NCBI GenBank assembly: GCA_964474825.1
Contig: CAYYWQ010000001.1
Span: 1,130,184-1,194,183, forward strand
Direction: 5' to 3'
DNA length: 64,000 nt
From: an uncultured Candidatus Saccharibacteria bacterium
GTDB lineage: Bacteria > Patescibacteriota > Doudnabacteria > UBA920
Positions 24,934 through 60,949 of this stretch are shown one piece after another (the stretch's first letter is position 1; each line of letters starts with the position of its first letter). The notes under the pieces are model-generated. The model saw only the letters and a list, made by a program, of their open reading frames with translations. It did no database searches and was not told where the DNA came from. The translations under genes were made by a program, and so were the position numbers.

Positions 24934-25188
24934 ATGTCACCGCTGCAAAAACAGCTAATGGCGGCGTCGGACCAGCTTATTGGCGTAAGCCAAGCAGCGC
25001 GTCTGACTCCTTACTCGGCTGAATATTTAAGTTTACTTGCCCGCAAAGGCAAACTCAATGCTGTAAAAATTAACCGCGACTGGGTTACTACTCCCCAGGC
25101 GGTTTTAAGTTATGTAAAAAAACAGGAACGCAAACACTCAAAAATCTTAAAGGGGCTACAAGAAGCGGAAAGGACAATAGCTCCGTGA
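24934..25188 (+). CDS. Small helix-turn-helix DNA-binding protein (excisionase/MerR-type HTH_17-like)
   Basis: 'IGVSQAARLTPYSAEYLSLLARKGKLNAVKINRDWVTTPQAVLSYV' matches the excisionase-family HTH pattern (…G.LPA.KIGRRWRI…). Its TGA stop overlaps the GTG start of the giant ORF (GTGA). Confidence 0.6.
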   Translation: MSPLQKQLMAASDQLIGVSQAARLTPYSAEYLSLLARKGKLNAVKINRDWVTTPQAVLSYVKKQERKHSKILKGLQEAERTIAP

Positions 25189-31100: not shown

Positions 31101-33866
31101 TCTTTAATGATTGGCTTTAACAGCGACATTGCCACTTTGTTTGTAGGTCCCGGAAATGGCACCAGCACAGTGGGCAATGTTGGTATTGGCACTACCACTC
31201 CGGGTTCTGCTTTAACTGTTGCTGGAGATATTAATTTTACAGGGAATTTGCTTTACAATGGTTCACCAATAACTTTTAATATTTCCAGCGGTCTTACATT
31301 AACCGGTTCGGATTTTGTAGATTCTGTGGACATTAATAGTGAAGTTATTGAGCCAATCCATGTTTCCTTTAGCAGCGACGGAACCCATATGTTTGTTATT
31401 GACGACGATACCGGCAATATATTCCAATACGACTTAGGCTTAGCGTGGGACATAACGACTGCCAGTTACAGCAGTAATTCTTTTGACCCAGGTTCAGAAT
31501 TTGCCTTCGGTGTGTGGTATGCCTCTTGGAAAACAGACGGAACCAAATTGTATGTAGAGGGGAACGCTGATGGCGACACAAAAGTAGTTGAATATTATCT
31601 TTCTTCCCCATGGGATATTTCTACGGCTTCTTCCACCGGAAATTCTATAGATATTTCAACTGACATTAGTAACGGAGGGGATTGGGTTTGGAACAGCGAC
31701 GGCAGTGAGGCTTTTGTAACTGCATGGGAGGGAGGGCTTATACATAGGTATTCACTACTAACTCCTTGGGACCTTACTACAGCAACGTATACAGGCCCGG
31801 TGCTTGAAGTCAGTATCGGCAGCGGTTTTCCAATTGGCATGAGTTTTTTTAACAGCGGCTTAAATATGGGAGTAGTTATGTTTAATCCTGGAAGCGGTAG
31901 TATAGTTTTGTATAGTTATACGCTCGATTCCGCCTACGATGTTTCCAGCGCTTCCCCGGACGGTTCCAGTTTTGACCTTACCGTTTATGGTAATATTACT
32001 GTTCCTTTCTTTAGCCCAGAAGGCGACCAGTTCTATTTTCCTGTTGAGGGTTACTCTGCTGTAAATGGTGGAGACGGAAGTATTATTCAATTTGAACTAG
32101 GCGCTAGCAGTAGTGGATTGCAATGGACAACTTCAGGCAGTGATATTTATTTTTCAAGAGGCAATGTTGGTATAGGCACCCACGAAGCGTCCGCCCTGTT
32201 AGACGTGCAGGGGTCGGGTATGCTGCCGGGGACAGGCACAATTAGCGACGACGGTTATGGTATTATTACCGGCATAGGTACCAGGTTTGAGGAAGAATTA
32301 AGCGAAGGGGATACCATTTTAATCGGCAGTTTTCCTTTTGGTCTTCCTGCTACAATCTATGAAATTTCTGACAATGAACATATGAGAGTCCAGCACGACT
32401 TAAGTGAGACCTATGTAGACACAACTTTTGCTTATCAAAAACCCCTTGTAGTTATGGGAGAGCCAAGCGGTCCGGAAACTATTTTTAGCGCCAGCGGTTA
32501 TACGGCCAGCCTTTCTTTGGGTTACCAAAATACAGTTAGCGGTTATTTTGGTACCGCAATTGGAACGGGAAATACGGTTATGTCTGCTGTTGGGCCCGAC
32601 GGCCTTATGGGAACGGCGGCCTTAGCTCTGGGCAGTGCAAATACTGTAAGGGGTCAGGGGAGTATTGCCATAGGAAGCTATTTAACAGCCGGCGCCGACG
32701 GGGCAATAGTTATAGGTAGTGGGGATTTTGAAGACGAAGGTTCTCTGACAAATAACATAGAAAACTCATTAATGGTTGGCTTTAACAGCGATGTACCAAC
32801 ATTGTTTGTTGGCGCCGGTTCCGGCTTAGGAACTTTTGGTAAGGTTGGTATTGGCACCACCACTCCTGACTTTTTAATTACTTTAAGCGGGGGGGCGTAC
32901 AGTGATGGTTCTTCCTGGTCCAATGCTTCGGACAAAAACTTAAAAGAAAATTTTGCCACTGTCACCCCGGCAGACATTTTGCAAAAAATTGTAAGTCTGC
33001 CTATTAGCCAGTGGAATTATAAAACGGATACAGCCACAACTACCCACATGGGCCCAACGGCCCAGGATTTTTACGCTGCTTTTGGCCTAGGTGGTAAAGG
33101 AGGCGCCAAATCTATTTCTACCATTGATGAGCCGGCAATTGCTTTGCTTGGCATCCAAGCACTAAACCAAAAAATTATTGACTTGCAAGGCGCGCTTGTA
33201 AATAACGCCAGCTCTACAATTGCTTTAACTGTTACCCAAGCCGTTGTGTACGAAAAAACTTTAACAGTTTTGGGACAGGTTTACTTTAGCGGAGACAATG
33301 TCGGACAGGCGCAAATTTTGGCCGGTGAAAATTCCGTGCGAATAAATTTCAGCCAGGCTTATTTGTATCAGCCGATTATTACTATTTCACCAATAGACTT
33401 TGACGGCAAATGGAAATTAAAAAACGTAGATTCCCAAGGATTCACAATTAAGCTGACTGAAAAGCAAAACTTAGACGTCACTTTTAATTGGCACTCTTTT
33501 GCATCTGAGCAGGCTAAGCTTACTGTTAGCAGCGGCACAACTTCGCCTATTACTTTGGTTGTCGTTAGCGGGGAAGTTTTGGGAGAAGCTATCTCCACTC
33601 CAAATACAGGCCCTGTAATCAGCAACAGCCCTCAGCAACCAGCTGAAGCTCCTTCGCCAACTCCGGAAGTTTTGGGGGAGTTTACAACATCCCCTGAGGC
33701 TGTTGTTGATCAACCTGCTTTCCCGTCCCCGGACCCTACGCCGGTAGTTGACGCACCAGCAGATGTGCCGGATTCGCCCAGCCCTAAAGCCCCGGACGAA
33801 GCCCCAACAGTTACGGCTCCTGAACCACCGCCAGCGTCCGCTGCGCCAAGCGAGCCGACTCCTTAA
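25185..33866 (+). CDS. Giant (2893 aa) membrane-anchored surface protein with a phage-tail-fibre-like intramolecular-chaperone (S74-type) domain; putative adhesin
   Basis: Basic N-terminus then TM 'AGALLLLLSFGVYGA'. Collagen-like 'GQKGEPGEPGRAGG' (about 25791-25838). About 20 Gly-rich 'GSGY..GD..T..GG.GG…V' repeats (about 26290-28560). Three modules marked by 'VGIGTTTP' and 'ISDDGDGNITGTGT.F..EL..GD' with YadA/Hep_Hag-like heptads and 'SLMIGFNSD.[AP]TLFVG'. 'WDIT[TS]AS' beta-propeller-like blades (about 31310-32100). 'SDKNLKENF…ILQKIVSLPISQWNYKTD…GPTAQDFYAAFG…IDEPAIALLGIQALNQKIIDLQ' chaperone domain (about 32928-33190). PT-rich tail. A start at the downstream ATG (25284) is possible. Confidence 0.85.
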   Translation: MKIKLEKNKIPRTASHFKKRKVLAGKAKNSADTMEQKIKQIFKVPGEVSKKKIAKRKIITKDILPVIDVESPEFAKMVEIFPASRLKDAVIQGSKILLKPIKVPTFAKAGALLLLLSFGVYGATLSKNYLEQGLLKQLASKQQAAKPVAQNKINPKIKDGAIAKLSRAVPRVLGESTTSQSNSNLPAQIRNILDQYIKEGKITGQKGEPGEPGRAGGSVVGSAPIIYYPPNPSQNFTGGTYLGVTNLSSQNHTVTNNLTVSGNTTIAGALNVSNFSINGITVAGSAQWAADGNNISYSRGNVSVGTASSSGQLTVLDSAAGSYYGSELVNNGNFSGSTEGWTLGDSWGYSTNGVGFVAPVFSGAVTRFSATESAGSGYSVGDVLTLLPGTSDPAGTGGTITVTAVATNGQIESMRGMEAIGRDYNVNQIVDVVGGSGSGAQLLITNMDGEGGVEDFVIQNPGSGYSSGCDTYEVEGTSGHDFRPILCAGSSGGVVSFTLRSGGSGYLEEEHNTSGGHGSGFVANIREVSALGTIDLIPGFDDGHYGTGYHVGDVLTVLPGIGDNEASGGTLTVTEVSNGEIFASSIQNDGIGYQVGDVLTIPGGTGGEYTVSGIDEAGDGHIESIAGINGADQMGSGYERGDILNVAAGTGGQITIDAVLDGQVFFAFPETVANAGSGYAADDIITVNGGDGPVDLIIVEVANDSLGLWEPNTADGNNGVTASGTGYSVGDIVNVDGGSGGQLYVQVVDENGGVQSYSVYENGSGYTLGYNAYATSYGGSGTGFVANVGVLPEGGVLFAESNSSHNGTGYTSGNYSVTGGSGSGFSPMVLAGDISFGFFTEANIHNPGSGYVPGDIITISGGSGAKIIIAGTNSSGGVTDWNLYKPGTGYTAGYATHSTTGGSGTGFSMDLGFPDFGGIVDSELTEAGSGYAYGVHLALGGHGSGYMPLLNTESELGELQYNDYQPVNGGSGYQVGDLVDVSGGTGGKVFVTSVSPSGAVRTIYIARNGTGYASDWAYRSTTGGSGTGLLINAFARNYHNNAITAGSITSAGSGYTSGTNLTLSGGSGSGATINITATGLGGAISEVDVTTGGSNYIAGNHAVSGGHGAGAVPFLAVESAAGGNLVQDLSIESGRRYRVKFTLSGEEEGCVSVFLGGALVSGDSFCGDTIAEVIVEAVNSNGLIFSPSSDFIGNISHVSVTQLKPGATAVSIVNSNSGKVLGISTGISGDNIFFGQESGGFNTDGLGNATLGYQTLYNNAEGSNNLALGYQAGFSNANGSNNIFIGNQAGYSETGSNKLYISNSSSSPLIYGDLTAGLLGINTINPNATLDVLGNPAQTGTGTISDDGDGNITGTGTAFTTELHRGDIVRDSNGEEAIVIYIESDTVMQVSKNLNGDTDQTFTYKHPVLNVTNYGADFPALSVSARGGLSSLNSYSYAGGVSSIAWGDDNLASGDYAAAFGSTNAAGGNFSFTAGLGNIVEGDASAAFGWGNSVFGPNSLALGKFNSVHGNTSMVFGENMQVDGSNSVGINLNYYEYPNLTRDNTMAIMGGNVGIGTTTPDVALSVQGDINLTGNIYKNGSLFGGGDSAWSTTLGSDLYFDAGNVGIGTSNPAANLHVYGEGSGEFTGGYESVLAIESADANPWALSIRRQDIGASSDISLYNNGDETTGDWRFAVGDGADSYYTPVDINKYGLTIGEQGLVGGNALAISPDVGGGMLYGTISAPVPFAWSLGYTSDVTVTSTPVITWNGLGKVGIGTTTPAALFDIRGSDGSIGSGLIADDGDGNITGTDTAFLAELQVGDSIEFYGANAPGIITEIIDDTHMIVSHVHTDPFIDSGFNYQSPLLSVSNAYEGLLNVYGLTNSASLGVGSLVSGGYSYALGAYNTVTSPYTEGPGGVAIGGGNTISSVLASAIGVNNTVTGDSSNAYGLYNTVSGQDAFAIGRYLNATSTGGFVLGSGYSYDHLLTNTIDSSLMIGFNSDIATLFVGPGNGTSTVGNVGIGTTTPGSALTVAGDINFTGNLLYNGSPITFNISSGLTLTGSDFVDSVDINSEVIEPIHVSFSSDGTHMFVIDDDTGNIFQYDLGLAWDITTASYSSNSFDPGSEFAFGVWYASWKTDGTKLYVEGNADGDTKVVEYYLSSPWDISTASSTGNSIDISTDISNGGDWVWNSDGSEAFVTAWEGGLIHRYSLLTPWDLTTATYTGPVLEVSIGSGFPIGMSFFNSGLNMGVVMFNPGSGSIVLYSYTLDSAYDVSSASPDGSSFDLTVYGNITVPFFSPEGDQFYFPVEGYSAVNGGDGSIIQFELGASSSGLQWTTSGSDIYFSRGNVGIGTHEASALLDVQGSGMLPGTGTISDDGYGIITGIGTRFEEELSEGDTILIGSFPFGLPATIYEISDNEHMRVQHDLSETYVDTTFAYQKPLVVMGEPSGPETIFSASGYTASLSLGYQNTVSGYFGTAIGTGNTVMSAVGPDGLMGTAALALGSANTVRGQGSIAIGSYLTAGADGAIVIGSGDFEDEGSLTNNIENSLMVGFNSDVPTLFVGAGSGLGTFGKVGIGTTTPDFLITLSGGAYSDGSSWSNASDKNLKENFATVTPADILQKIVSLPISQWNYKTDTATTTHMGPTAQDFYAAFGLGGKGGAKSISTIDEPAIALLGIQALNQKIIDLQGALVNNASSTIALTVTQAVVYEKTLTVLGQVYFSGDNVGQAQILAGENSVRINFSQAYLYQPIITISPIDFDGKWKLKNVDSQGFTIKLTEKQNLDVTFNWHSFASEQAKLTVSSGTTSPITLVVVSGEVLGEAISTPNTGPVISNSPQQPAEAPSPTPEVLGEFTTSPEAVVDQPAFPSPDPTPVVDAPADVPDSPSPKAPDEAPTVTAPEPPPASAAPSEPTP

Positions 33867-33962: not shown

Positions 33963-34673
33963 TTGAAAATAATGAACGAAGTTAGCCAAAACCTAAAATT
34001 AAGCGTGGTCCTGCCTTGCCGGGACGAAGAAGCGGCTGTGGGGGAGTGCATTTTAAAAATAAAACAGGTGCTGGAGCAGAATAATATAGATGGGGAAATA
34101 ATAGTATCAGATTCCTCGGCCGACAGTTCAGCCAAAATAGCTCAAAATCTTGGTGCGGTTTTAATTCAGCACGGACGGGAAGGTTATGGTACTGCCTGCC
34201 TGGAAGGGTTTAAAGCGGCAAAAGGAAAATATATATTTTTGGCAGACGCTGACGGAAGTTATGATTTTGCGGAAATACCTAATTTTTTGGCACACCTGGA
34301 ATTGGGTAATGATTTTGTAATCGGCAACAGGTTTAAAGGAAAAATTGCCCCCGGGGCAATGCCTTTGCTTCACCGCTTTGTGGGAAACCCACTGTTTCCG
34401 TTTATGTTTAGAATATTTTTCCGCGCAAAAATTCAGGACGTGCACTGCGGAATGAGGGCCGTGGCTAAAGAGTCGCTCGCTCCGCTGGCGCTTAATTCCA
34501 CTGGTATGGAATTTGCGTCGGAAATGCTAATTAAGGCCGTGCAAAATAAACTTAAAATACACGAGCTATCTATAAATTATTACAAAAGGAAAGGCGTTTC
34601 AAAACTGCGTCCTTTTGCGGATGGCTTTAGGCACCTTAGGTTAATAGTGCTCGCAGGAGCTTTTAAAAAATGA
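33963..34673 (+). CDS. Glycosyltransferase family 2 (Dpm1/ArnC-like polyprenol-phosphate sugar transferase type)
   Basis: 'LSVVLPCRDEE', 'IIVSDSSAD', 'YIFLADADGSYD' (DxD) motifs. 236 aa. Confidence 0.75.
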   Translation: MKIMNEVSQNLKLSVVLPCRDEEAAVGECILKIKQVLEQNNIDGEIIVSDSSADSSAKIAQNLGAVLIQHGREGYGTACLEGFKAAKGKYIFLADADGSYDFAEIPNFLAHLELGNDFVIGNRFKGKIAPGAMPLLHRFVGNPLFPFMFRIFFRAKIQDVHCGMRAVAKESLAPLALNSTGMEFASEMLIKAVQNKLKIHELSINYYKRKGVSKLRPFADGFRHLRLIVLAGAFKK

Positions 34674-35770
34674 AGATAGCGGTTTTCCATAATTTTATGG
34701 ACAACATAGGCGGCGCGGAAATTGTGGCGCTGGCTTTAACTAAAGGCCTTTCCGCGGACCTTTATACCACCAACATAGACCGCGACAAAATAGAAAAAAT
34801 GGGTTACGGAAACATTTTGCCCAATATATATTCCATTGGCACAGTTCCAAAAAACGCTCCGTTTAGGCAGCAGCTGACTTTTTGGAAATTTAGTCAGCTT
34901 AATTTAAAAAAGAAATACGACTTCTACATTATTGCCGGGGACTGGGCCATGTCCGGCTGTGTTAATAACAAGCCAAATTTATGGTATGCCCACTCTCCCT
35001 TAAATGAGCTTTGGGCCTTTAAAGACTATGTAAGAAACCAGGTTATAGAAGGTTGGAAAAAACCTTTTTTTGATGTATGGGTTTGGTTTAACCGAAGGCT
35101 TAATAAAAAATATGTAAATCATGCCCAAATAATTATTTGCAATTCCAAGAATACGCAACAAAGAGTAAAAAATATTTATAACCGTAAAGCTGGGGTTTTG
35201 AATCCTCCGGTAGATACGGCAAAATATTTTAGCAATCCCCACAAAGGTTATTGGCTTTCAGTTAATCGGCTAACAAAGGCCAAAAGAATAGAACTGCAAA
35301 TGCATGCCTTTGCCCAAATACCGGAAGAGAATTTAATTATAGTGGGCAGTTACGAAAAAGGCTCTAAGCCTTTTGAAAAATACAAAAAATTTATTGGAGA
35401 AATAAAACCTCCAAATGTTAAAATTATAAACTGGGCAACAGACGAGGAATTAAAAGAGCTGTATGCCAACTGCATTGGCCTAATAACTACTTCCATAGAC
35501 GAGGATTTTGGCATGGCGCCGGTTGAAGCCATGGCCGCGGGCAAGCCGGTAATAGCGCCAAACGAAGGCGGCTACAAAGAAACACTGGTCGATGATGTTA
35601 CTGGAAAACTTATTTCAGACATCAGCTTTGAGAAATTGATTAAATCAATCCGGGAAGTCGGTAAAAATCCGGAAAGTTACAAGCAGGCATGTTTACTGCA
35701 AGCCGCAAAGTTTGACACGCAAATTTTTATAAATAAAATTCAGCAGCTATTAGAAAAGCCCTATGCCTAA
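34670..35770 (+). CDS. Glycosyltransferase (GT-B fold, GT4-like)
   Basis: C-terminal Glycos_transf_1-like region: 'EDFGMAPVEAMAAGKPVIAPNEGGYKETL' (EX7E-type). ATGA start/stop overlap with the upstream gene. Confidence 0.7.
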   Translation: MKIAVFHNFMDNIGGAEIVALALTKGLSADLYTTNIDRDKIEKMGYGNILPNIYSIGTVPKNAPFRQQLTFWKFSQLNLKKKYDFYIIAGDWAMSGCVNNKPNLWYAHSPLNELWAFKDYVRNQVIEGWKKPFFDVWVWFNRRLNKKYVNHAQIIICNSKNTQQRVKNIYNRKAGVLNPPVDTAKYFSNPHKGYWLSVNRLTKAKRIELQMHAFAQIPEENLIIVGSYEKGSKPFEKYKKFIGEIKPPNVKIINWATDEELKELYANCIGLITTSIDEDFGMAPVEAMAAGKPVIAPNEGGYKETLVDDVTGKLISDISFEKLIKSIREVGKNPESYKQACLLQAAKFDTQIFINKIQQLLEKPYA

Positions 35771-36605
35771 AGCATTGTTCATTACCGGAAATAAGCGCTC
35801 CGGCACTTCCCAGCTCGTTAGGCTCCTAAATTTACACCCGGAAATATTTGTTTCGCATGAGTCAGACGCTGTGCTCATAATTTCGCGTTTTTTAAAGGGA
35901 GAACCTTTCTTAAGCCATGCCGCAGATTCTTCTGTTGGAATGGAATATACTTTAAAAATTTGTGGCCAACTTTTGAGCAAACAAAAAAGCGCTGCAGAAA
36001 ACTTTTTTGCAATTCAAAAAAAGCTTATGGAAACGGGCAGCCCGTGGCTTCCATCAGAACCTAAAAAAGACCCGCAATGGGTGGGGGACAAAAAGCCTTT
36101 TCAGTATTCGGATCCCTCTATAACAGATTTTATCCGTTCCAGTTTTCCGCAGGCTGTTTTTATTCATTTAGTCAGGCATCCTTTTGCCGTAGCCCAAAGC
36201 GCGCAAAAATTTAACAAAACCGTTAATGGGGATTTTTGGAGAGGTTTAAGTTTAGAGGAAATGGTGGAAGAGTGGGCTAAAAATGAAAATAATGTTTTAG
36301 AGCTAAAAAAATCCGGTTGGGCCAAAGTGATGGACGTGCGCTATGAAGATTTATGTAAGGAAACAGACAAAGAACTTACGCGAATTTTTAATTTTTTGGG
36401 GCTCAAAGTAAACGCAAATATTTTAAAAACAGCAGCCAAAACCACTCGTTACACACTAAAAAAAATACCAATAATTCCTTGCAGTCAGAACACGCTTTCT
36501 ATTATGGGCCAGTATGGATACACACCGGGGCAGGCAGAAAAGGGAAGGGCGCAAATTTTACTTTCCAATTTATATTGGAAAGTGCACAAAAAAATATATG
36601 CATAA
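35763..36605 (+). CDS. Sulfotransferase-family protein (PAPS-dependent)
   Basis: N-terminal 5'-PSB-like P-loop 'FITGNKRSGTSQLVRLLNLHPEIFVSHE'. Mid-region 'FIHLVRHPFAVAQS' (3'-PB-like). About 280 aa, typical of bacterial sulfotransferases. Confidence 0.65.
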   Translation: MPKALFITGNKRSGTSQLVRLLNLHPEIFVSHESDAVLIISRFLKGEPFLSHAADSSVGMEYTLKICGQLLSKQKSAAENFFAIQKKLMETGSPWLPSEPKKDPQWVGDKKPFQYSDPSITDFIRSSFPQAVFIHLVRHPFAVAQSAQKFNKTVNGDFWRGLSLEEMVEEWAKNENNVLELKKSGWAKVMDVRYEDLCKETDKELTRIFNFLGLKVNANILKTAAKTTRYTLKKIPIIPCSQNTLSIMGQYGYTPGQAEKGRAQILLSNLYWKVHKKIYA

Positions 36606-37179
36606 AAAAGTTTTTCAGGAGTTTGAAAAAATCTGTTCTAAAAGAAGTTTAAGAGGTTCGGTTCTGGAGGTTGGCGCCAAACCGGATTTTTCCAGCCTTT
36701 TGAATATGGAAGCGCTAAAGGCCATGGACGAAAAAATAGGCATTAACCTGGAAGGGGCATCTGAGTATAAAGATTTTAAAATACTTAAAGGCAATGCCAA
36801 TAATATGGATTGTTTTGCCAGCAATAGTTTTGATTTAGTTTTATGCAACGCGGTTTTTGAACACGACAAATTTTTTTGGAAGACACTTTCGGAAATAAAA
36901 AGGGTTGCCAAACCTGGCGCGCTTATTGTTATTGGCGCTCCGGGTTTTGGTATTACTGCCGCCGAAGGCCGCTTACGCGCCATCTTAAATCACATTCCCT
37001 TCTTGCCTAGTTTTTTTACCAGTTCTACTTTAACACTTCTGGAACACAACTTCCCGGGCGATTATTACCGTTTTAACAAACAGGCTTTTGAGCAAGTTTT
37101 TTTTGAAGGAATGAAAGAAGTCAGTATTAAAACTATAATGTCCCCCCCAAGAATAATAGGCGCAGGCATAAAATCATGA
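36598..37179 (+). CDS. Class I SAM-dependent methyltransferase. Start moved to ATG 36598, overlapping the upstream stop, rather than the ORF-track start at 36514
   Basis: Motif I 'VLEVGAKPD', 'DLVLCNAVFEH', 'KPGALIVIGAP' (Methyltransf_11/23-like). Confidence 0.65.
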   Translation: MHKKVFQEFEKICSKRSLRGSVLEVGAKPDFSSLLNMEALKAMDEKIGINLEGASEYKDFKILKGNANNMDCFASNSFDLVLCNAVFEHDKFFWKTLSEIKRVAKPGALIVIGAPGFGITAAEGRLRAILNHIPFLPSFFTSSTLTLLEHNFPGDYYRFNKQAFEQVFFEGMKEVSIKTIMSPPRIIGAGIKS

Positions 37180-38336
37180 AAATATTGCACGTGGTCGGCA
37201 GTTTAGACCCTAAAGACGGAGGCGTGGTCCAGGTTGTTTTGGGCATGACAAAGGCTTTGGTAAAAAATAATATAGATGTTACTTTGTTCGCGCCTGAGCC
37301 GGGAAACGTAGAGGATATAAAAGATTATGGGGGAGTGAAAATAAAATTTTTTAAAAAAGCTTTTTTCTCGGTGTTTTTGGCTGGGCATTCGCTTAGGTCT
37401 GGCTACAGCCCTGCATTAGCAAAAGCTTTGGCAAAAGAGGCTGGTAATTTTGATCTGGTGAATACCCACAGTATTTGGCACTACCCGCACTATGCGGCTT
37501 TTTTGGCATCTTCTGCGGCTAATGTTCCTTTTATGTCCACGGTCCAAGGTGAGTTAACTCCTTGGGCTTTAAAACAGCAAAGCGCTTGGGGCTTACATAC
37601 TCAGAAAAAAATATTAGCTAAAGCCTCAGCCATTCAGGCTGTTTCCAAACAGGAAGCCCAAAATATTAAAAACTTTACCAGTAACCCTAATATTTTTGTT
37701 GTGCCCAACGGCATAACGCCCGAGGACTTTTCGGGGGAGAATGGTAATGATTGGTTATTTACAAAGTATCCGGAGCTAAAAGGCAAAAAGATTGTTTTAT
37801 TTTTAGGCCGCGTTAATGCGGGCAAGGGTTTGGAAGTTTTGGCTCATGCGTTTGCTAAGGTGTCCGCTCGCGAGCCTGACAGCAGGCTCCTTATAGTCGG
37901 ACCGGACGAATGGGGCTACGGCAGGAAAATAAAAGAAATTTTAAAAAGAGAAAATGTTTTAGATAAGACTGTTTTTACAGGTATGCTGGTTGGTAAAGAA
38001 AAACTTTCTGTTTTAAAATCTTCAAGTGTTTTTGTTTTGCTCTCTGAGTCTGAAGCCTTTAGTGTTACAATTTTAGAAGCCCTTTACTGCGGCTTGCCTG
38101 TAATTATTAGTCCGGAATGTAATTTTCCGGAAGTAGAAAGTTTTGGAGCAGGCAAGATTATTGAAAGAGATAGTGAGCAGCTGGCTGTCAGTCTTTTGGA
38201 AATGTTTGCAGATCTTCCACGTCTCGCCCAAATGTCTGAAAATTCCAAGAAACTTTCGAGTTCAGGAGAATATTTTTATGACAACATTGCCAAAAAAATT
38301 ATAGGGATTTACGAAAAAATTAAATTCAATGTTTAA
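37176..38336 (+). CDS. Glycosyltransferase family 4 (GT-B)
   Basis: N-terminal 'MKILHVVGSLDPKDGGV' (GT4 N-domain). C-terminal 'SESEAFSVTILEALYCGLPVIISPE' EX7E motif. Confidence 0.8.
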   Translation: MKILHVVGSLDPKDGGVVQVVLGMTKALVKNNIDVTLFAPEPGNVEDIKDYGGVKIKFFKKAFFSVFLAGHSLRSGYSPALAKALAKEAGNFDLVNTHSIWHYPHYAAFLASSAANVPFMSTVQGELTPWALKQQSAWGLHTQKKILAKASAIQAVSKQEAQNIKNFTSNPNIFVVPNGITPEDFSGENGNDWLFTKYPELKGKKIVLFLGRVNAGKGLEVLAHAFAKVSAREPDSRLLIVGPDEWGYGRKIKEILKRENVLDKTVFTGMLVGKEKLSVLKSSSVFVLLSESEAFSVTILEALYCGLPVIISPECNFPEVESFGAGKIIERDSEQLAVSLLEMFADLPRLAQMSENSKKLSSSGEYFYDNIAKKIIGIYEKIKFNV

Positions 38337-39441
38337 GCGGGTAAAAAAAATTATAAAAATTAACGCTCAGAGGGCAGTACTTTGTGTTATTCATAGGCGT
38401 TTGCCGTTCCGCTCTTTTTTTGGTGTAGGCTTGGTTAATAAGAAATGGGCAAGAGAACTAAATCAAAGACTCCTGGATAGCAATAAAGTTAAAGTAGGGT
38501 TTGGTCCTGTAATTAGCGGGGAAGACGATTTAGGCGTTAGAAAATGGCGCATAGACCCAATTGTTAATTACATTAACCAAAGCAGCAAAAAATATTGTGC
38601 CGGAATTTTTTTAAATGTCCAACAAGCGGAAAAATTCGACATTCTTGTTATTGTAAAAGACTTATCTGTTTTAAGTTTTACGGATATTACACAATTAAAG
38701 AAAAATAATAAAAAAATTATTTACGATGTTATTGACCAGCCGTATGGGGAGAATGCAGCTCATTACCCGCAAATAAAAGAAATCTTTAAAGTCGTAGACG
38801 CCATAATTGTTTCCAGTCCGCTTCAGGAGCAGGATTTATTAGGCCTTAATAAAATTGTAACTTTAATAGAGCATCCGGTCATAAACACGCTGGCAAAAGA
38901 TTACAGCAGGGGAGGCAATGGGCCAATAAAAATTATTTGGCAGGGCTACAGCGAACACCATAAGCGCATGGAATTTTTGCATCCTATGATAGAAAGAATT
39001 GCAAAAGAGTTAGGGAAAAAAATTACCCTAACTTACCATACTAATTTATTGCCAAAGCGAAATGGCTTTGTAAATTTTAAAACCTGGACTGTCAATAACT
39101 GGGAAAAGGCCTTGGTTAAGGCGGATATTGCCGTGGAAGTTAAAACTTTAGACGACCCGTTGCTGCAGCGTAAACCTTCCACTAAAGCGGTTTTGTATGG
39201 AGCGGTTGCGCTACCGGTTGTTTTAACCCCGTCAGCCGCAGACAAACTAGTCGTTACCCATGGGCAGACCGGCTATTTTGCTTACAGCCGGGAAGACTGG
39301 TATATATATTTAAAAAAATTGGCGGAAAATGTAAGTCTTCGTCAAAGCATGGGTTTGTTGGCTAAACAGCGCGCTCTGGAAAATTTTAATATTGCAAAAA
39401 TTGGGGAAAAATATATTAGCCTGTTGGATAAAATGGTTTAG
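38329..39441 (+). CDS. Putative glycosyltransferase / polysaccharide-biosynthesis protein (GT-B-like C-terminal half)
   Basis: C-terminal 'KPSTKAVLYGAVALPVVLTPSAADKLVVTHGQTGYF' resembles the GT1-family nucleotide-sugar-binding half. The N-terminal half is unassigned. Confidence 0.35.
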   Translation: MFKRVKKIIKINAQRAVLCVIHRRLPFRSFFGVGLVNKKWARELNQRLLDSNKVKVGFGPVISGEDDLGVRKWRIDPIVNYINQSSKKYCAGIFLNVQQAEKFDILVIVKDLSVLSFTDITQLKKNNKKIIYDVIDQPYGENAAHYPQIKEIFKVVDAIIVSSPLQEQDLLGLNKIVTLIEHPVINTLAKDYSRGGNGPIKIIWQGYSEHHKRMEFLHPMIERIAKELGKKITLTYHTNLLPKRNGFVNFKTWTVNNWEKALVKADIAVEVKTLDDPLLQRKPSTKAVLYGAVALPVVLTPSAADKLVVTHGQTGYFAYSREDWYIYLKKLAENVSLRQSMGLLAKQRALENFNIAKIGEKYISLLDKMV

Positions 39442-40181
39442 CTGTTTATATAACTTTCAACAATTTCTTGCGAATTGCCTTGTTCAACAATCTCGCCCTT
39501 CTCCATCCACATAACTTTACTGCAATATTTTTTTACAGCAGACAAATCATGGGTAACTAAAACAACGCTAAGTCCTTGGCTTACTGCTTCCTGAATTTTT
39601 TTAGCGCTTTTGTTTTTAAAGTTTTCGTCGCCAATTTCAAAAACTTCGTCCAGCAAAAGTATTTCCGGCCGCGAGAAAATGGCCAGGGAAAAAGCCAGAC
39701 GCTGCTTCATGCCTTCGGAGAATTGGTAGATTTTTGTTTCCATGTATTCGGCAAGGCCTGAAAATTCCGCAATGGAATTTAGTTTGTCTTTTATTTCCTG
39801 CCTGCCTAAGCCAAACAGAGAACAGCACAGGAAAATGTTGTCTTTCATGCTTAGCCTGTCCTGCAGGGCCGCGCCTAAATTTATTAAAGAAATTATTTTT
39901 CCGTGCGTCAAAACCTGTCCCATATCCGGCTGGTAAATACCCGCAACTATTCTCAGCAGGGTGCTTTTTCCGCTGCCGTTTTTACCCAAAATACCTAAAA
40001 TTTCTCCCTCTTTAAGTTCAAAAGAAATATTATTTAACGCCCAAATGTCTTTTTTTGGCTCCCTTCCCGAAAATATAGACAAGAAATACCACAAAACACT
40101 CTGCTTTTTTTTAAAGCCAATCCTGAATTTTTTTGAAATATTTTTTACACTCACTCTTTGCATTTTAAATCCTTTCCGCAA
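39438..40181 (-). CDS. ABC transporter ATP-binding protein, polysaccharide/teichoic-acid export type (Wzt/TagH/KpsT-like), no C-terminal carbohydrate-binding domain
   Basis: Walker A 'GKNGSGKST', signature 'FSEGMKQRLAFS', Walker B 'ILLLDEV'. 247 aa. Confidence 0.85.
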   Translation of the reverse strand: MRKGFKMQRVSVKNISKKFRIGFKKKQSVLWYFLSIFSGREPKKDIWALNNISFELKEGEILGILGKNGSGKSTLLRIVAGIYQPDMGQVLTHGKIISLINLGAALQDRLSMKDNIFLCCSLFGLGRQEIKDKLNSIAEFSGLAEYMETKIYQFSEGMKQRLAFSLAIFSRPEILLLDEVFEIGDENFKNKSAKKIQEAVSQGLSVVLVTHDLSAVKKYCSKVMWMEKGEIVEQGNSQEIVESYINS

Positions 40182-40959
40182 ATTTCCGTTTTAAGCAGCT
40201 AAAAATAAAAATGCCCACCAGCAAAAAAAGCAGGGTGTAAAGTATTACCCCTAAAATTATATACAGTTCGGGTGTTCTGCCATAAAGCAAAAGGTCCCGG
40301 GAAGCGGTTAAGAAGTAGTATAGGGGATTAAATAAATTAAAAATAAACAGCCGGTTCTGCCCGCCTATGGTGTAAAAAATCGGTGTGGCAAACCATAACA
40401 GTCTCGCAATAAAAGCCCAAATATTTTCTAAGTCCGTAAAGTAAACAGTCAGGGAAGAAAGTATTAGGGAGGCTCCAAAAGTAAACAGGAAAAAAAATAA
40501 AAAAATCACCACATAAAAAAACAACCCTTTTAAAGGCAAGCCAGAAAAAATCATAAAGCCTGCAAAAACAATAATTTCAAAAAAATGGGAAAAGGAAGCT
40601 TTGAAAGCAGAGGAGCTTACAATGGCCTCTAAAGGAAATCTAATAGATTTAATTACTCCCCGGTGTATGTGTATTGCTTTGGTGGACTCTGTAGTTACGT
40701 ACTGGAAGAAGTTAAACATTATTAAACCCAAAAGCAGGTAAAGAGGGTAGTGCTTTATACCTTCTCCAAGCCTTGCTGAAAAAACCGCCAAAAGAAGGCC
40801 AAAGGTCAGTAGAGGAGCGAGTAAATACCAAAATACTCCCAAAAAACTGCCTTCATTCCGCTCTTTAAATCCGGCCTTGGCCAGTTCAAAGCTTAGGCGG
40901 AGAAAACCTTTCATTTTGTGGGCAGATCCCATATCCGCGGGTTTTAATAAACTCTCCAT
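40165..40959 (-). CDS. ABC-2 type transporter permease (Wzm/TagG-like)
   Basis: Six predicted TM helices. About 264 aa. Overlaps the downstream ATPase gene (operon). Confidence 0.7.
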   Translation of the reverse strand: MESLLKPADMGSAHKMKGFLRLSFELAKAGFKERNEGSFLGVFWYLLAPLLTFGLLLAVFSARLGEGIKHYPLYLLLGLIMFNFFQYVTTESTKAIHIHRGVIKSIRFPLEAIVSSSAFKASFSHFFEIIVFAGFMIFSGLPLKGLFFYVVIFLFFFLFTFGASLILSSLTVYFTDLENIWAFIARLLWFATPIFYTIGGQNRLFIFNLFNPLYYFLTASRDLLLYGRTPELYIILGVILYTLLFLLVGIFIFSCLKRKFAERI

Positions 40960-41007
40960 GATACAATAAAGTATATTGTATTTAACACCTAAAGTGAAAT
41001 TACATAA

Positions 41008-42816
41008 ATGCTCCAGGTTATAGTTGGTGCTATTTTACTTCTTTTCCCATTTTTACTTTTAATAAAATATAAAGACAAAAGCTTGGCTTTTGTTTATATT
41101 TTTTCTTTGTGGCTGGCATTCCATTTGTTTGTTGCTCTGGTAACTCAGCTGCTGCATATTTTTACTTACCCTGTTTTGCTTGGCGCTAATTTAGTTTTAG
41201 CCGGGGCGGTTTTAGGGGTAATGCGGTCTTCTTGGGTCAAGCCAAAGCTTTTTCCCGCTGAGTTCCTAAAAAATAATTGGGCGCCGCTTTTTGCCCTGGC
41301 CCTGGCTTTTATTTGTCTTTATTCTGTCCACTATAATTATTCTGGAAAATACAGTGTGGTTGGTACATCTGAATATAAGGAAGTTAAAAATATGAAGTAT
41401 GAGTATCCTTATTTTGCAGACGAGTGGTATTCCGCAGCCTTTATAAAAGATTCAATAAGCTCCCGTTCATTGCCAGTTAGAAATCCGCTGACAAAACTTA
41501 AGTTGCCTTTTGTAAATTTTGAAATTGCTTTCCATTCATTTTTGTCCGGTTTGTTTTTGCTTTTAGGTGTAGAGCCGCTTACGACTTACCCGGTCATAAG
41601 TTTAATTTTTAATTTGGTTATTTGCGGTTTAATTTATCTATTCCTCAGAAGGAATAACATTGGGAAAAAGGCCGCGGCAATTTGTGGTCTTCTTGCTCTG
41701 TATATTACAAACGGCAGCAACCTCCCCGGACTGTGGACACTTATTCCTTTCACCTTAGGAATTATTTCAATTTTACTTGGGTTTATTTTTTTAAGTTCCG
41801 GCAAAAAAATGGAGGCTTTGCTTACAGCGGTCTTGGTCCTTTTATTTTACCCGCCGTTTTTCCCTTTTTATACTTTAATGATTATTTTATTTTTGTTGTT
41901 TTCTAAAAATTTGAGCACCAAAGAAAAAATTAATGACGCTGCCTATTATTTTTCCATCTGCCTTGTTATCGGCTTTCTTGTCTCACTTGCTCACTTTGCG
42001 GCGGGCAAGGGAACCACAGGCGCCCTCAACGAAATATTTTCCAAAATATTTTACCAAACTCTAACAGTGCCTTATAATCCTAATTTTCCTATATTATCAG
42101 TCGTGCCCTACTTGGCTTTGCTTTTACTGCCCTTTGGAATTTACTCCGCGACAAAAAAGCATATTTGGCTGGCCGCCAGTGTTTTTTTAGGGCTGGCTTT
42201 TTGGATATTTTATTCCCTTTCTACCTTCCGGGTATTTATAGAATATGAACGCGTAGTAATTTTAACTTCAATATTAATAGTTATAGTAGCGGGATTTGGG
42301 CTGGAGTATTTGGCCGGACTGCTTAAAAGAGTTAGATTTTTTAGGGGAAATAGCTACGTTGAATATTTGCTTTCGGCAGTACTGATTTGTTTTTTATTTT
42401 TTACTTTTAATTATACCAACAGAGATTCCTGGAAGAATTTTACTACAGACGCGGCAGCAGACGGCGAGTTTTTAATTCCTTTGGCCGTGGCTAATAATTA
42501 TTTGGTTCTAGATGACTTAGAAGTTTTTAAAAATATTCATAATAAAATTTTCTTAAGCTTGCCTTGGAAGGGAACAGTCTTGGGAGTTGCTACTAACAAT
42601 TACCCGGCCAGCATAAAAACCGGCACCATTGGGATTTATCCATATTTAGGGAAGCAGTTTATGGCCGTAAGTTGCCGTGAAAAAAGCCTGCTGGCCAAAG
42701 CCTACAGGCTGGATTATGTGTACCTACCAAAATTTACCTGCCCGGAATTTGAATTTGTAAGTAGTAGCGGGGAAGGCTTTTATTTGTACCAATTTAAAAA
42801 GCCCCAGGCCTCTTAA
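41008..42816 (+). CDS. Polytopic membrane protein (about 13-14 TM + about 140-aa C-terminal extracytoplasmic domain); GT-C-like glycosyltransferase/oligosaccharyltransferase candidate
   Basis: Topology only: many TM helices, a roughly 70-aa loop after TM4, a soluble C-terminal domain. No sequence motif confidently recognised. Confidence 0.4.
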   Translation: MLQVIVGAILLLFPFLLLIKYKDKSLAFVYIFSLWLAFHLFVALVTQLLHIFTYPVLLGANLVLAGAVLGVMRSSWVKPKLFPAEFLKNNWAPLFALALAFICLYSVHYNYSGKYSVVGTSEYKEVKNMKYEYPYFADEWYSAAFIKDSISSRSLPVRNPLTKLKLPFVNFEIAFHSFLSGLFLLLGVEPLTTYPVISLIFNLVICGLIYLFLRRNNIGKKAAAICGLLALYITNGSNLPGLWTLIPFTLGIISILLGFIFLSSGKKMEALLTAVLVLLFYPPFFPFYTLMIILFLLFSKNLSTKEKINDAAYYFSICLVIGFLVSLAHFAAGKGTTGALNEIFSKIFYQTLTVPYNPNFPILSVVPYLALLLLPFGIYSATKKHIWLAASVFLGLAFWIFYSLSTFRVFIEYERVVILTSILIVIVAGFGLEYLAGLLKRVRFFRGNSYVEYLLSAVLICFLFFTFNYTNRDSWKNFTTDAAADGEFLIPLAVANNYLVLDDLEVFKNIHNKIFLSLPWKGTVLGVATNNYPASIKTGTIGIYPYLGKQFMAVSCREKSLLAKAYRLDYVYLPKFTCPEFEFVSSSGEGFYLYQFKKPQAS

Positions 42817-43592
42817 CTTTTCGCCAAAGTTTTTATATATTTTAAAACAATTTCCGCCTGCTCCTTAGGATTTTGCTTGTCGGAATTTAAAGTAACGTGC
42901 GGGTTTTTCGGCGCTTCATAAGGTTTATTTTGGTCTTTAGGGAGTTTGCGCGCAATATATATCCACACCGGTTTTATTAGCCGGTCAATTTTTTGGCGGA
43001 CATTCTTAAATGGGGCAATTACAGAAACAATAACAGGGGACTGTTTGGAAAGAGCCAGCGCGAGTCTGGCAACACGCAGGTTGTGTTCAGTCCTGTCTTG
43101 TTTGGAAAACCCGGCATCTAAAGAAATAGACTGGCGCATCTCATCTCCATCTAAAACCACGCCGCCTATTTTTTCTTTTAGCAGTGAAGCCAGTGTTGTC
43201 TTCCCCGCGCCGCTTTGTCCGGTTATCCAGTAAATAGGGAAGCGCTTTAAATTTTTCTCCCTGGTTTTTGTTCCTGAAATATTTTCTACTTCCGAAGAGA
43301 GTTCTATTTTTCTAATGGCATAACCTACGTCCCTGCCGTAGCAAATTTCGTCTATGTCCGGTATGGTAATAATTTTTACCAGCTCCCCGTATTTTTTTAA
43401 GCTCCGTGAAATAATATTCCAGCGTTCAGCGGTACTGTAAGGGTTGGTGGGGCTAATTTCCGTGTCCCTAATGGCAATGACAACGGGTTTGCCTTTTTTT
43501 AGTACAGTCTCTATTAAGGTAAGGTGGCCTTTATGAAAAGGTTGCCACCTGCCCACGAACAAGCTGGCCGGTTGGATTTGGGGTTTCTTCAT
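42813..43592 (-). CDS. Fusion of an HxGH nucleotidyltransferase-like domain with adenylyl-sulfate (APS) kinase
   Basis: N-terminal 'FVGRWQPFHKGHLTLIE' (cytidylyltransferase/NMNAT-type HxGH). C-terminal 'ITGQSGAGKTTLASLLKEKIGGVVLDGDEMR' (CysC Walker A plus LDGD). The linker region is present. Confidence 0.65.
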   Translation of the reverse strand: MKKPQIQPASLFVGRWQPFHKGHLTLIETVLKKGKPVVIAIRDTEISPTNPYSTAERWNIISRSLKKYGELVKIITIPDIDEICYGRDVGYAIRKIELSSEVENISGTKTREKNLKRFPIYWITGQSGAGKTTLASLLKEKIGGVVLDGDEMRQSISLDAGFSKQDRTEHNLRVARLALALSKQSPVIVSVIAPFKNVRQKIDRLIKPVWIYIARKLPKDQNKPYEAPKNPHVTLNSDKQNPKEQAEIVLKYIKTLAKS

Positions 43593-43719: not shown

Positions 43720-44364
43720 ATGGATATGAACAACAAGTTTCAAAGAGTTTTTATGAAGTGGCTGCCTTTGGCGATTGTCACAATAGTTCTAGCAGGAACA
43801 GTTTATGTGGCGATACAACAGAATTACAGGATGTCTGCCAATGACCCGCAAATTCAGGTGGCGGAAGACGTAGCAGAGGCCATTACCAGTGGTACAGCGG
43901 CTCCGGACAGCATTGTCCCGGCTGCTCCCACCGCGGACATGACCAAAAGCCTTTCCACTTTTTTAATTATTTACAGTGCCAGCGGCACCCCGGTTGGGGG
44001 CTCTGTTGCGCTCGACGGAAAAATCCCAACTCCGCCCGCCGGAGTGTTTGACAACGTAAAAAAACATGGACAGGAACGCTTAACCTGGCAGCCCAAGGCC
44101 GGAGTTAGAATGGCTACGGTTATTGTAAGTTTTGCGGGTCCGGAATCCGGTTATGTGTTAGTGGGTCGTTCTTTGGAAGAAGTGGAAGCCAGAATAATGC
44201 AGCTTGGTTTGTTGGTTGGCCTGGGCACTTTAGTTGCTTTAATTTTAAGTTTTTTGGCTATGTTTTTTATGGCAGGTGCCGGACATGGCCACGCGCATGA
44301 GCATCACCATGACCACGAGGTACCGGGCTTGTCCGGGCATAACCATAATGACTCCGCAGTTTAA
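43720..44364 (+). CDS. Membrane-anchored hypothetical protein with His-rich C-terminus
   Basis: TM 'WLPLAIVTIVLAGTVYVAI'. A second TM lies near the C-terminus. Tail 'GAGHGHAHEHHHDHEVPGLSGHNHND' (metal-binding-like). Confidence 0.45.
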   Translation: MDMNNKFQRVFMKWLPLAIVTIVLAGTVYVAIQQNYRMSANDPQIQVAEDVAEAITSGTAAPDSIVPAAPTADMTKSLSTFLIIYSASGTPVGGSVALDGKIPTPPAGVFDNVKKHGQERLTWQPKAGVRMATVIVSFAGPESGYVLVGRSLEEVEARIMQLGLLVGLGTLVALILSFLAMFFMAGAGHGHAHEHHHDHEVPGLSGHNHNDSAV

Positions 44365-59244: not shown

Positions 59245-60273
59245 ATGCTTTTTTCCAAACTGTTTGCCAAAAAAAAATCAATGTTAGGCGTAGATATTGG
59301 CACGGCTAACATTAAGGTGGTCCAAATAGACCAAGCTGAAACTCCTGTTTTGCAGACTTATGGGATTGTAAATACGCCCTATCAACTGGGAGGCAAGAAT
59401 GACGAACAGGCTTTGCCTGAAATGGCCAAACTGCTTAAGACGTTACTGGAAAAAGCAGGGGTAACCACGCGGCGCTGTGTTATTAGTTTTCCCAATATTT
59501 CAGTATTTAGCTCTGTTATAGAGCTGCCCAGCATGTCAGATTCTGAACTGGCCCTTGCCGTTGAGCATGAAGCAAAAAAATATATACCGCTTTCTTTAAC
59601 CGACGTAGATATGGACTGGGTCATGATTTCCAAAGACCCATTGGGCAAGGGGACAATAAAAGTCCTGTTGACAGCTGTGCCTAAGCAAGTGACTAAAAAT
59701 TACCGCCGCTTGTTTGAAATGGCCGGTTTAGAGCATGAAGTAGGGGAAATTGAGGGACTGGCCCTTATTCGCTCTTTAGTCGGGAATGCGCCTACCAACT
59801 GTGTTATAATAGATATAGGAGCAAAGAGTACCGGTTTAAATATTATTGAAAATGGTTATTTAAGGTTAAGCCGTAACCTTAACATTGGCGGCGAAACTAT
59901 TACTGCCAAAATAGCACAAACTCTTAATATTAGCGAAGCTCGAGCTGAACAATTCAAACGGGATTTTGGAGTTAGTGGCAGTACTTTTATCCCAGAAGCA
60001 ATTAGGCCGGTCCTAAATGTGATTAAGACTGAAACCAAACAGTTAGTTACCCTTTACCAGTCCCAAAACAATAAAAAATTAGAAAAAATTATTTTAGTTG
60101 GCGGCGGCGCGAATTTACCGGCAATAACGAGTTTTTTTAGCGACCTGCCGGCTCCTGTGGAATTGGGTAACCCTCTGAGAATTATTAGTTACAGCAAAAA
60201 TTTGTCCGCCGTACTGCAGCGCCATGCCTTAAGTTTGCCTATTGCCATTGGTTTAGCTTTAAGAAACGAATAA
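59245..60273 (+). CDS. pilM: Type IV pilus assembly protein PilM (actin-like ATPase fold)
   Basis: 'LGVDIGTANIKVVQI' phosphate-1 motif. About 340 aa. 'GGGANLPA' in the C-terminal half. Confidence 0.8.
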   Translation: MLFSKLFAKKKSMLGVDIGTANIKVVQIDQAETPVLQTYGIVNTPYQLGGKNDEQALPEMAKLLKTLLEKAGVTTRRCVISFPNISVFSSVIELPSMSDSELALAVEHEAKKYIPLSLTDVDMDWVMISKDPLGKGTIKVLLTAVPKQVTKNYRRLFEMAGLEHEVGEIEGLALIRSLVGNAPTNCVIIDIGAKSTGLNIIENGYLRLSRNLNIGGETITAKIAQTLNISEARAEQFKRDFGVSGSTFIPEAIRPVLNVIKTETKQLVTLYQSQNNKKLEKIILVGGGANLPAITSFFSDLPAPVELGNPLRIISYSKNLSAVLQRHALSLPIAIGLALRNE

Positions 60274-60361
60274 CAACATAAACATTTAACAATTAACCTT
60301 TGACATTTGACTGCCAAAAAAGTCATATGTTACATGTCAAAGGTCAAATGTCCCAAAACAC

Positions 60362-60946: not shown

Positions 60947-60949
60947 CTT

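Follow-up and report, generated by a model that had tools for sequence, protein, structure and literature searches.

A compact nucleotidyltransferase-kinase fusion of an uncultured Saccharibacteria bacterium as a candidate bifunctional PAPS synthase

From which enzyme does a sulfotransferase receive its 3'-phosphoadenosine 5'-phosphosulfate (PAPS) when no recognisable sulfate-activating enzyme is encoded around it? This question is raised by a stretch of 64,000 nucleotides (hereafter named the window) from contig CAYYWQ010000001.1 of an uncultured Candidatus Saccharibacteria bacterium. One open reading frame (ORF) of this window, running from ATG to TAA on the minus strand (42813..43592), encodes a protein of 259 aa, in which Pfam recognises a nucleotidyltransferase (NT) domain followed by a kinase of the adenosine 5'-phosphosulfate (APS) kinase family. 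To our knowledge, only two classes of sulfate-activating enzymes are known, Sat and CysDN. A previous reading of the DNA, made from the letters alone (the sequence-only reading), suggested that the fusion might be a minimal two-step PAPS synthase feeding a nearby sulfotransferase, and this suggestion gained support here. We consider it reasonably probable, on the basis of comparative sequence analysis, that the gene encodes a compact bifunctional PAPS synthase, because of the fusions in which its domains take part, their operon-like association with sulfotransferase genes in a set of 117 loci, and the absence from those loci of any Sat motif or unambiguous stand-alone CysD.

The N-terminal domain belongs to the archaeal NMNAT/NadM clade

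Residues 1-115 (43248..43592, minus strand) constitute a compact HIGH-type NT domain of the clade of nicotinamide mononucleotide (NMN) adenylyltransferases (NMNAT/NadM), for which we propose a sulfate adenylyltransferase function. The NT-superfamily motif GRWQPFHKGH, from which the sequence-only reading had correctly recognised the domain, occupies residues 14-23 (43524..43553, minus strand), and the Pfam model CTP_transf_like matched residues 11-66 with 31.2 bits (cutoff 21). A second NT motif, ISGTKTR, is located at residues 105-111 (43260..43280, minus strand). Both the HxGH (H20-K-G-H23) and the SxTxxR (S106-G-T108-K-T-R111) motifs of archaeal NMNAT/NadM are present; R15, H20, H23, S106 and R111 are invariant across all the architectures in which the domain occurs, and T108 has a conservation of 90% or more. 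Profile alignment placed R15, H20, H23, S106, T108 and R111 opposite R11, H16, H19, S131, T133 and R136 of the NMNAT of M. thermautotrophicum.

Archaeal NMNAT/NadM (TIGR01527, PRK01153; MJ0541, PDB 1f9a; Mt NMNAT, 1ej2) is the best match of the query in sequence, profile and fold alike over its first ~80 residues, with 30-37% identity, a superposition at 2.2-2.4 A and nearly identical GRxQPFHxGH, NPxT..ER and SGTxxR motifs. The best NCBIfam matches of the domain were also archaeal NMNAT models, PRK01153 (51.6 bits, cutoff 127) and TIGR01527 (44.6 bits, cutoff 181.2), whose curated thresholds were not reached. A profile was built from 38 diverse NT domains and the best 60 of its 89 matches were examined; among the matches listed, the MJ0541 NMNAT was the first (E 3.8e-14), followed by NadM and then by phosphopantetheine adenylyltransferases (PPATs), whose similarity is weaker (E 4e-6 at best vs 4e-14). 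The model of the NT domain alone (pLDDT 93) retrieved PPAT and NMNAT/NadM structures in Foldseek, over ~75-80 residues only.

Comparison with two archaeal NMNATs of Methanothermococcus (L034, L036) revealed that the NMN-binding segment, which comprises FNAIWVSYVEALTPPF and TGNPLVRELFME, is deleted in the NT family. The deletion spans ~25-32 residues after beta-4, where NMNAT residue 76 is followed directly by residue 109 in the profile alignment, and the C-terminal helical subdomain of NMNAT is missing from the query as well. The deleted segment, with its helix, is the part that we take to contact the nicotinamide in the NMNAT structures 1ej2 and 1hyb. Its place is occupied by an invariant (C/N)YGR, which in the query forms part of YGRDVGY (residues 85-91; 43320..43340, minus strand), a family-specific motif in which G86, R87 and G90 do not vary and which we propose as the putative acceptor (sulfate) site. 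The sequence-only reading had named as an argument against its own suggestion an N-terminal domain that aligned to NMNAT and kept the NMN-binding residues; the first part of this was found, since the clade is that of NMNAT, but the second was not, because the NMN site is gone. Judged by its sequence, the N-terminal domain is a trimmed member of the archaeal NMNAT/NadM clade and not of the Sat family. Its residue conservation suggests a domain that is catalytically intact for nucleotidyl transfer, with a reduced acceptor pocket that carries a new invariant Arg.

Two other functions have to be weighed against these data. The protein might be a NadR-like enzyme of NAD salvage, in which an NMN adenylyltransferase is joined to a nucleoside or nucleotide kinase: NadR is a known fusion of NMNAT with a P-loop kinase, its structures 1lw7 and 6gye were found among the profile matches, and the domain matched archaeal NMNAT/NadM best both by sequence and by profile. 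Nevertheless, the NadR structures matched the HxGH region only (E 1e-4 to 9e-3 among the matches listed), the NMNAT scores are far under their cutoffs, and both the segment from FNAIWVSYVEALTPPF to TGNPLVRELFME and the helical subdomain have been lost. In addition, the kinase belongs to the APS-kinase family instead of the ribosylnicotinamide-kinase type of NadR, the partner of the NT family is an APS kinase and not Nudix or NAD genes, and the gene contexts described below point to sulfation. A role in NAD salvage is hardly credible.

The second function is that of a non-catalytic nucleotide-binding or regulatory module, which would sense, for instance, ATP, APS or PAPS on behalf of the kinase, the APS being obtained from another enzyme or by uptake. 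The severe trimming of the domain relative to active NMNATs would fit such a role, and 3cr8 and 1i2d, found among the fold matches, offer precedents of degenerate domains; the APS-kinase-like domain of fungal ATP sulfurylase has become an allosteric PAPS sensor. Against this stands the invariance, across architectures, of all the residues that the parent family is known to require for nucleotidyl transfer (R15, H20, H23, S106 and R111), which would not be expected of a mere binding module. Stand-alone NT proteins of 105-135 aa are also abundant, and no alternative source of APS was seen near the genes. We regard a regulatory function as distinctly improbable.

The C-terminal domain is of the APS-kinase family but lacks the lid

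The remainder of the protein (residues 116-259; 42813..43247, minus strand) is a lid-less domain of the APS-kinase family. The Pfam model APS_kinase matched residues 121-207 with 70.4 bits (cutoff 21.1), covering only positions 5-97 of the 152 in the model. As had been noted from the letters alone, this domain is fused to the NT domain and contains the P-loop GQSGAGKTT (residues 125-133; 43194..43220, minus strand; G125, G130 and K131 invariant) and the APS-kinase LDGD motif with its Arg in LDGDEMR (residues 147-153; 43134..43154, minus strand; L147 and R153 invariant). Within the family both motifs are invariant or nearly so. The accompanying description of the kinase as a canonical CysC had to be abandoned: the NCBIfam apsK equivalog (TIGR00455) gave 87.5 bits, below its cutoff of 138.7, and a lid of ~22 residues is missing.

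Compared with the canonical kinases of related fusions, the query lacks the lid residues 'TPLEVCERRDPKGLYKK...IKNFTG', and this lack is common to all the lid-less relatives. Alignment with solved APS kinases was obtained in two pieces (residues 120-206 and 224-255) that skip ~40 reference residues, and the connector ARKLPKDQNK (residues 214-223; 42924..42953, minus strand) is aligned at the position of the canonical lid. Like CysC (TIGR00455, PF01583; the Mtb enzyme 4bzp and the A. fulgidus enzyme 7yq0), the query has retained the P-loop, LDGDxxR (here LDGDxMR), GFSxxDR, NxR (here HNxR) and the C-terminal PYExP segment. Unlike CysC, it lacks the ~22-30-residue lid that bears the Arg, Lys and Phe in contact with ATP and APS, and it reads IAP where the canonical kinases read ISP. 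The conserved residues G161-F162, D166-R167 and N171-x-R173 are aligned with the canonical GFS, DR and NxR; the Phe of GFS, the Arg of DR and the Asn and Arg of NxR are, as we understand it, those that bind APS or the phosphosulfate.

In the AlphaFold model of the whole protein (pLDDT 91.4) the kinase fold superposed on APS kinases (Foldseek: 5cb8, 7yq1, 8i1n, 3cr7 and others) with a root-mean-square deviation (rmsd) of 2.1-3 A and E ~1e-8. The kinase is only an atypical member of the CysC family.

The chemistry of the kinase, the phosphorylation of a 3'-OH, is shared by APS kinase and dephospho-CoA kinase, and the protein could in principle be an analogue of CoA synthase, with a PPAT as NT domain and a kinase acting on the 3'-OH of dephospho-CoA. 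Among the structures closest in fold to the NT model are those of PPAT, weak matches to CoaE and CoaD were obtained, and one homolog (P0077) carries the NCBI name 'dephospho-CoA kinase'. The scores, however, are low (CoaD TIGR01510, 20.1 vs a cutoff of 103.3; Pfam CoaE, 14.6 vs a cutoff of 27), the similarity to PPAT falls far below that to NMNAT, and the kinase has kept motifs aligned with LDGDxxR, DR and NxR of APS kinases. Moreover, the fusion partners of this kinase elsewhere include CysD and sulfotransferases, and the signal among its neighbours is that of sulfotransferases rather than of CoA or pantothenate genes. CoA synthesis is a very unlikely function for this protein.

Fusion architectures suggest a role of both domains in sulfate activation

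A total of 1.84 billion representative proteins were searched exhaustively, which yielded 79 clusters at E < 1e-30, and the architectures of the best 150 cluster representatives at 50% identity were classified. The order kinase-NT (K-NT) was found in 64 of the 150 clusters (35 with the lid and 29 without it) and the order of the query (NT-K) in ~46 (15 with the lid, 31 without it). A lid-less kinase without NT accounted for 31 clusters, and NT without kinase for nine. The NT domain is thus nearly always fused to, or adjoins, an APS-kinase-type domain, in either order. True CysC is among these partners: the kinases of P0171, P0157 and P0135 exceeded the apsK equivalog cutoff of 138.7 with 257, 205 and 148 bits.

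The lid-less kinase has other partners as well. In P0183 it is fused to a bona fide CysD (NF003587, 278 bits vs a cutoff of 195), and in P0205 and P0245 to sulfotransferase domains. Because NT and CysD are each fused to the same lid-less kinase, both occupy the same slot, and the fusions with CysD and with sulfotransferases suggest, at the level of sequence, that the lid-less kinase belongs to sulfate activation. One metagenomic protein of 432 aa (P0244) joins NT to a DHH/DHHA1 domain, a family that we understand to include the NrnA-type phosphatases of adenosine 3',5'-bisphosphate (pAp). If P0244 were such a phosphatase, the synthesis of APS would be linked in it to the clearing of pAp, the by-product of sulfotransferases.

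Two side observations concern such fusions. In a metagenome-assembled genome (MAG) of Acidobacteriota (L027), an NT ORF (10001-10549) overlaps a Sulfotransfer_3 ORF (10344-11084) by 205 nt in another frame; the two may represent an NT-sulfotransferase fusion broken by a frameshift, and no kinase was seen near the NT ORF. On a phage-like contig (L039, 11034-11261; L040, 1832-2059), the 3' end of a gene for a fusion of canonical APS kinase and NT overlaps with a DUF2061 gene (75 aa), and T4 gp13-like, NUMOD3 and SNF2 genes are also carried by this contig.

Sulfotransferase genes are enriched next to the fusion genes

The sulfotransferase to which the sequence-only reading had referred was confirmed in the window at 35763..36605 on the plus strand (Sulfotransfer_3/1; Sulfotransfer_3 E 3.5e-24 in Pfam), and it is the presumed consumer of PAPS. 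The absence of separate sat and cysDN genes, which had also been noted, was corroborated by a six-frame motif scan: neither the Sat motifs QxRNPxHxxH and GRDHAG nor the CysD PP-loop nor CysQ motifs were found in the 64-kb window.

The analysis was extended to loci drawn from assemblies, reference genomes, viral contigs and metagenomes, of which 117 were left after removal of duplicates. Flanks of 4 kb or more were available for 76 loci; 29 of these contained a sulfotransferase, and 33 contained some gene of the sulfur pathway (sulfotransferase, TauE permease or PAPS_reduct family). The density of sulfotransferase genes decreased with distance, from 9.8 per 100 kb at less than 1 kb from the gene, where 18 out of 18 were on the same strand, to 6.2 per 100 kb at 1-2 kb, about 2 at 2-8 kb and 0 at 8-10 kb. 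In two loci (L002, L016) the start of the fusion gene lies within the sulfotransferase gene. When the ten candidates of the first screen were inspected with Pfam, seven were sulfotransferases, and the other three were a GT9, a Sulfatase-PAPS_reduct fusion and a TauE; most of the later sulfotransferase calls rest on a custom hidden Markov model alone. The GT9 glycosyltransferase (in L015), initially taken as a sulfotransferase, was dropped.

No Sat motif was present in the fetched flanks of the 117 loci, and no unambiguous stand-alone CysD was found in them, the sole clear CysD being the one fused in P0183. That gene is part of an operon with the order sulfotransferase, TauE permease and K-CysD, which lies within a glycosyltransferase cluster. 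Stand-alone NT and stand-alone lid-less kinase genes also tend to be neighbours: of the 17 loci that have a stand-alone lid-less kinase, nine have a stand-alone NT gene at a distance of 0-562 nt, and the others are mostly contigs of 1-3 kb.

The surroundings of the window gene are those of glycan assembly, and its product could be imagined as an enzyme whose kinase half is an APS kinase or a relative of it, but whose NT half adenylylates or cytidylylates another small phosphorylated acceptor of the same glycan pathway. This acceptor might be glycerol-3-phosphate, the substrate type of TagD, or a sugar-1-phosphate, that of domain II of HldE, and APS would then be supplied by the host or by a Sat or CysDN encoded at an unlinked site. 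The domain does lie within the cytidylyltransferase superfamily, the NT profile search gave weak matches to TagD (E 0.004-0.015) and to PPAT, and the window gene stands at the edge of a cluster of glycosyltransferases and an ABC-2 exporter, with P0157 and P0161 likewise situated in glycan clusters; the absence of sat, moreover, covers the window and the fetched flanks only. On the other side, in hundreds of clusters NT is paired almost exclusively with an APS-kinase-type domain, in both orders and also as neighbouring genes, and not with glycosyltransferases, and phage copies exist without any glycan genes. The acceptor-binding subdomain has been removed, and therefore there is room only for a very small acceptor. 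Finally, the 117 loci, taken together, provide no Sat or unambiguous stand-alone CysD. Another acceptor is an unlikely explanation. All four alternatives fit the fusion and neighbourhood data less well than a PAPS synthase does.

Some of the loci showed further features. The kinase-CysD fusion of P0183 (L011, 8712-10771) is preceded by the TauE-family permease, a possible importer of sulfate. The Pfam annotations of this 18-kb contig included no CysN GTPase, and this suggests that the CysD encoded there acts without its usual partner. In L014, a 676-aa fusion of Sulfatase (PF00884) and PAPS_reduct (PF01507) is encoded at 5637-7667, 2.3 kb from the NT-K gene, and in L001 Sulfatase and PAPS_reduct occur as separate genes around the NT-K gene (6478-7983, 10787-11458, 12170-13672). 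In a Kaiserbacteria MAG (L028), a stand-alone NT gene for 120 aa (10001-10363, plus strand) lies 92 nt from a divergent gene (8593-9909, minus strand) of the arylsulfotransferase (ASST) family, which is PAPS-independent; no kinase was visible within 10 kb of this NT gene.

Proposed mechanism and evidence for and against it

In the mechanism that we propose for a PAPS synthase, the NMNAT-derived NT domain would transfer AMP from ATP to sulfate, with formation of APS and pyrophosphate. The residues for ATP binding and catalysis (R15, H20, H23, S106, T108 and R111) have been kept, the NMN helix has been lost and the G86-R87 loop has been gained. PAPS would arise in a second step, for which homology suggests phosphorylation of APS at its 3'-OH by the lid-less kinase, and the fusion of both activities would draw the first, unfavourable reaction towards its products. 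The sulfotransferase of the cluster would consume this PAPS in the sulfation of a cell-surface glycan, exported by the ABC-2 transporter.

Several observations weigh against this interpretation. No ATP sulfurylase was present among the best 60 of the 89 matches of the NT profile, and the Foldseek matches of the NT model comprise PPAT and NMNAT and no Sat. The binding of sulfate by G86-R87 together with R42 is a conjecture. The kinase stays below the apsK equivalog cutoff and lacks the lid, which in Mtb CysC corresponds to residues 552-581, with Arg559 stacking on the ATP adenine, Lys562 contacting the gamma-phosphate of ATP and the 2'-OH of APS, and Phe576 stacking on the APS adenine; closure of this lid was reported to be essential for activity (PMC4373884). 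With regard to the gene contexts, ~57% of the loci with adequate flank have no sulfur-related neighbour, the members of the family in cultured phages have no sulfotransferase nearby, and in the window the sulfotransferase is located 6.2 kb away on the opposite strand from a fusion gene that is monocistronic. Furthermore, the PAPS_reduct genes of L001 and L014 are ambiguous between CysH and CysD, and they could supply the adenylyltransferase step instead.

Comparison with the known routes to PAPS makes clear what would be new in such an enzyme. The fused Sat-CysC or PAPS synthases (Aquifex aeolicus, PDB 2gks; human PAPSS1/2) also unite in one chain an adenylyltransferase of alpha/beta NT fold and a P-loop kinase of APS-kinase fold, and the proposed conversion of sulfate into APS and PAPS is identical. 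They differ from the query in size (546-630 aa vs 259 aa), in the lid of the kinase and, above all, in the adenylyltransferase: the Sat module has ~350-400 aa with PUA-like and catalytic domains, whereas that of the query has ~110 aa, is derived from NMNAT, is devoid of QxRNPxHxxH and GRDHAG, and had no detectable sequence similarity to Sat among the best 60 of 89 matches. Sat-CysC enzymes were the top Foldseek matches of the whole query model; these matches, which extend over both domains, were rejected as a likeness between NT and Sat, given that only the kinase superposes (rmsd 12-15 A, TM ~0.5). CysD, which would have the same function as that proposed for NT and fills its fusion slot in P0183, is an unrelated PP-loop ATPase fold that depends on the CysN GTPase; the query has no PP-loop SGGKDS motif and no homology to CysD (PF01507). 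The protein falls outside the families of Sat, CysD and NMNAT.

A broader proposition, which in our judgement is evenly poised, is that the NT module represents a third and independently evolved class of ATP sulfurylase, the smallest known, which would have arisen from an archaeal-type NMNAT by loss of the NMN pocket and would be partnered with an unrecognised class of lid-less APS kinase, forming the main route to PAPS in bacteria of the Candidate Phyla Radiation (CPR), in several uncultured phyla and in many phages. If this were true, the capacity for sulfur assimilation and sulfation would have to be read differently from genomes and metagenomes, in which these genes are now labelled 'cytidyltransferase-like' or 'kinase'. 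It would also explain the supply of PAPS to the sulfotransferases of CPR bacteria with reduced genomes and of phages, and it would imply that CPR bacteria possess sulfated cell-surface glycans, relevant to attachment to host cells. An APS kinase would be able to work without the lid thought to be essential, and a single chain of 259 residues would be available as a PAPS generator for biocatalytic sulfation. Homologs are also at hand in cultured phages, gp32 of Xylella phage Salvo being an example.

Distribution, phage homologs and annotation

Proteins with the architecture of the query and 62-75% identity to it were found in many CPR lineages, namely Woese-, Davies-, Nealson-, Roizman-, Wildermuth-, Kaiser- and Jacksonbacteria, Saccharibacteria, WWE3 and Paceibacterota, and further relatives in MAGs of Omnitrophota, Planctomycetota, Deltaproteobacteria and Acidobacteriota. 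At E <= 1e-10 the NT profile matched 5,090 proteins, of which many consist of the NT domain alone (105-135 aa). The family is common in viral contigs, some of 219-276 kb. A metagenome scan in which P0155 alone was used as query gave no matches.

In cultured phages the family corresponds to PHROG 10255 ('kinase'), with the K-NT order, which is present in the Xylella phages Salvo, Sano and Bacata, the Xanthomonas phages AhaSv and Seregon, and the Stenotrophomonas phage DLP_6. The query matched this PHROG at E 4e-27 and shares both domains with it; the phage proteins differ in the reversed domain order and in being annotated only as 'kinase' or 'adenylylsulfate kinase'. In Salvo (L062, NC_042345.1) the K-NT fusion of PHROG 10255 is gp32 (6989-7735), annotated 'kinase'; a gene annotated as cysteine dioxygenase (gp24) is located 3.5 kb upstream of it, and no sulfotransferase is present in this phage.

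An exact-match look-up of the query protein returned no record. All the source annotations of its relatives were of a generic kind ('cytidyltransferase-like protein', 'adenylyltransferase/cytidyltransferase family protein', 'kinase', 'adenylylsulfate kinase'), P0077 being the sole homolog named 'dephospho-CoA kinase' by NCBI. A search of the full-text literature returned no paper on the NT-kinase architecture or on a third type of ATP sulfurylase, and the same was true of papers on CPR metabolism.

Context of the fusion gene in the window

The fusion gene lies at the edge of a glycan-assembly cluster (33963..42816) with genes on both strands. In addition to the sulfotransferase, this cluster contains a GT2 (33963-34673), two GT4 (34670-35770 and 37176-38336), a gene without assigned family (38329-39441), the ATPase and permease of an ABC-2 exporter (39438-40959, minus strand) and a polytopic membrane protein of 602 aa (41008-42816), whose convergent gene is overlapped by the 3' end of the fusion gene by 4 nt. 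Upstream, the fusion gene is preceded by a divergent, AT-rich intergenic region of 127 nt; scans for promoters and terminators around the gene gave matches at chance level only. The divergent neighbour (43720-44364, plus strand) encodes a membrane protein of 214 aa with a His-rich C-terminal tail (GHGHAHEHHHDHE) and had no match in Pfam.

Elsewhere in the window, a complete bacterial 16S rRNA gene (1390 bits) was located at 19037-20501 on the plus strand. It is followed by an ORF encoding a protein of 747 aa (20771-23014) and not by a 23S gene, and for this reason the rRNA genes are considered to be unlinked. Unlinked rRNA genes are common in CPR bacteria, which fits the CPR affiliation of the homologs. 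Two giant ORFs are present on the plus strand, one of 2893 aa (25185-33866) and one of 1664 aa (51426-56420). Judging by their translations only, three small ORFs at 16101-17546 (plus strand) have type-IV-pilin-like N-termini, e.g. 'KGFTLIEILVVIGIIAILA', and the larger ORFs that flank them (13427-15726 and 59245-63747) resemble pilus-assembly genes.

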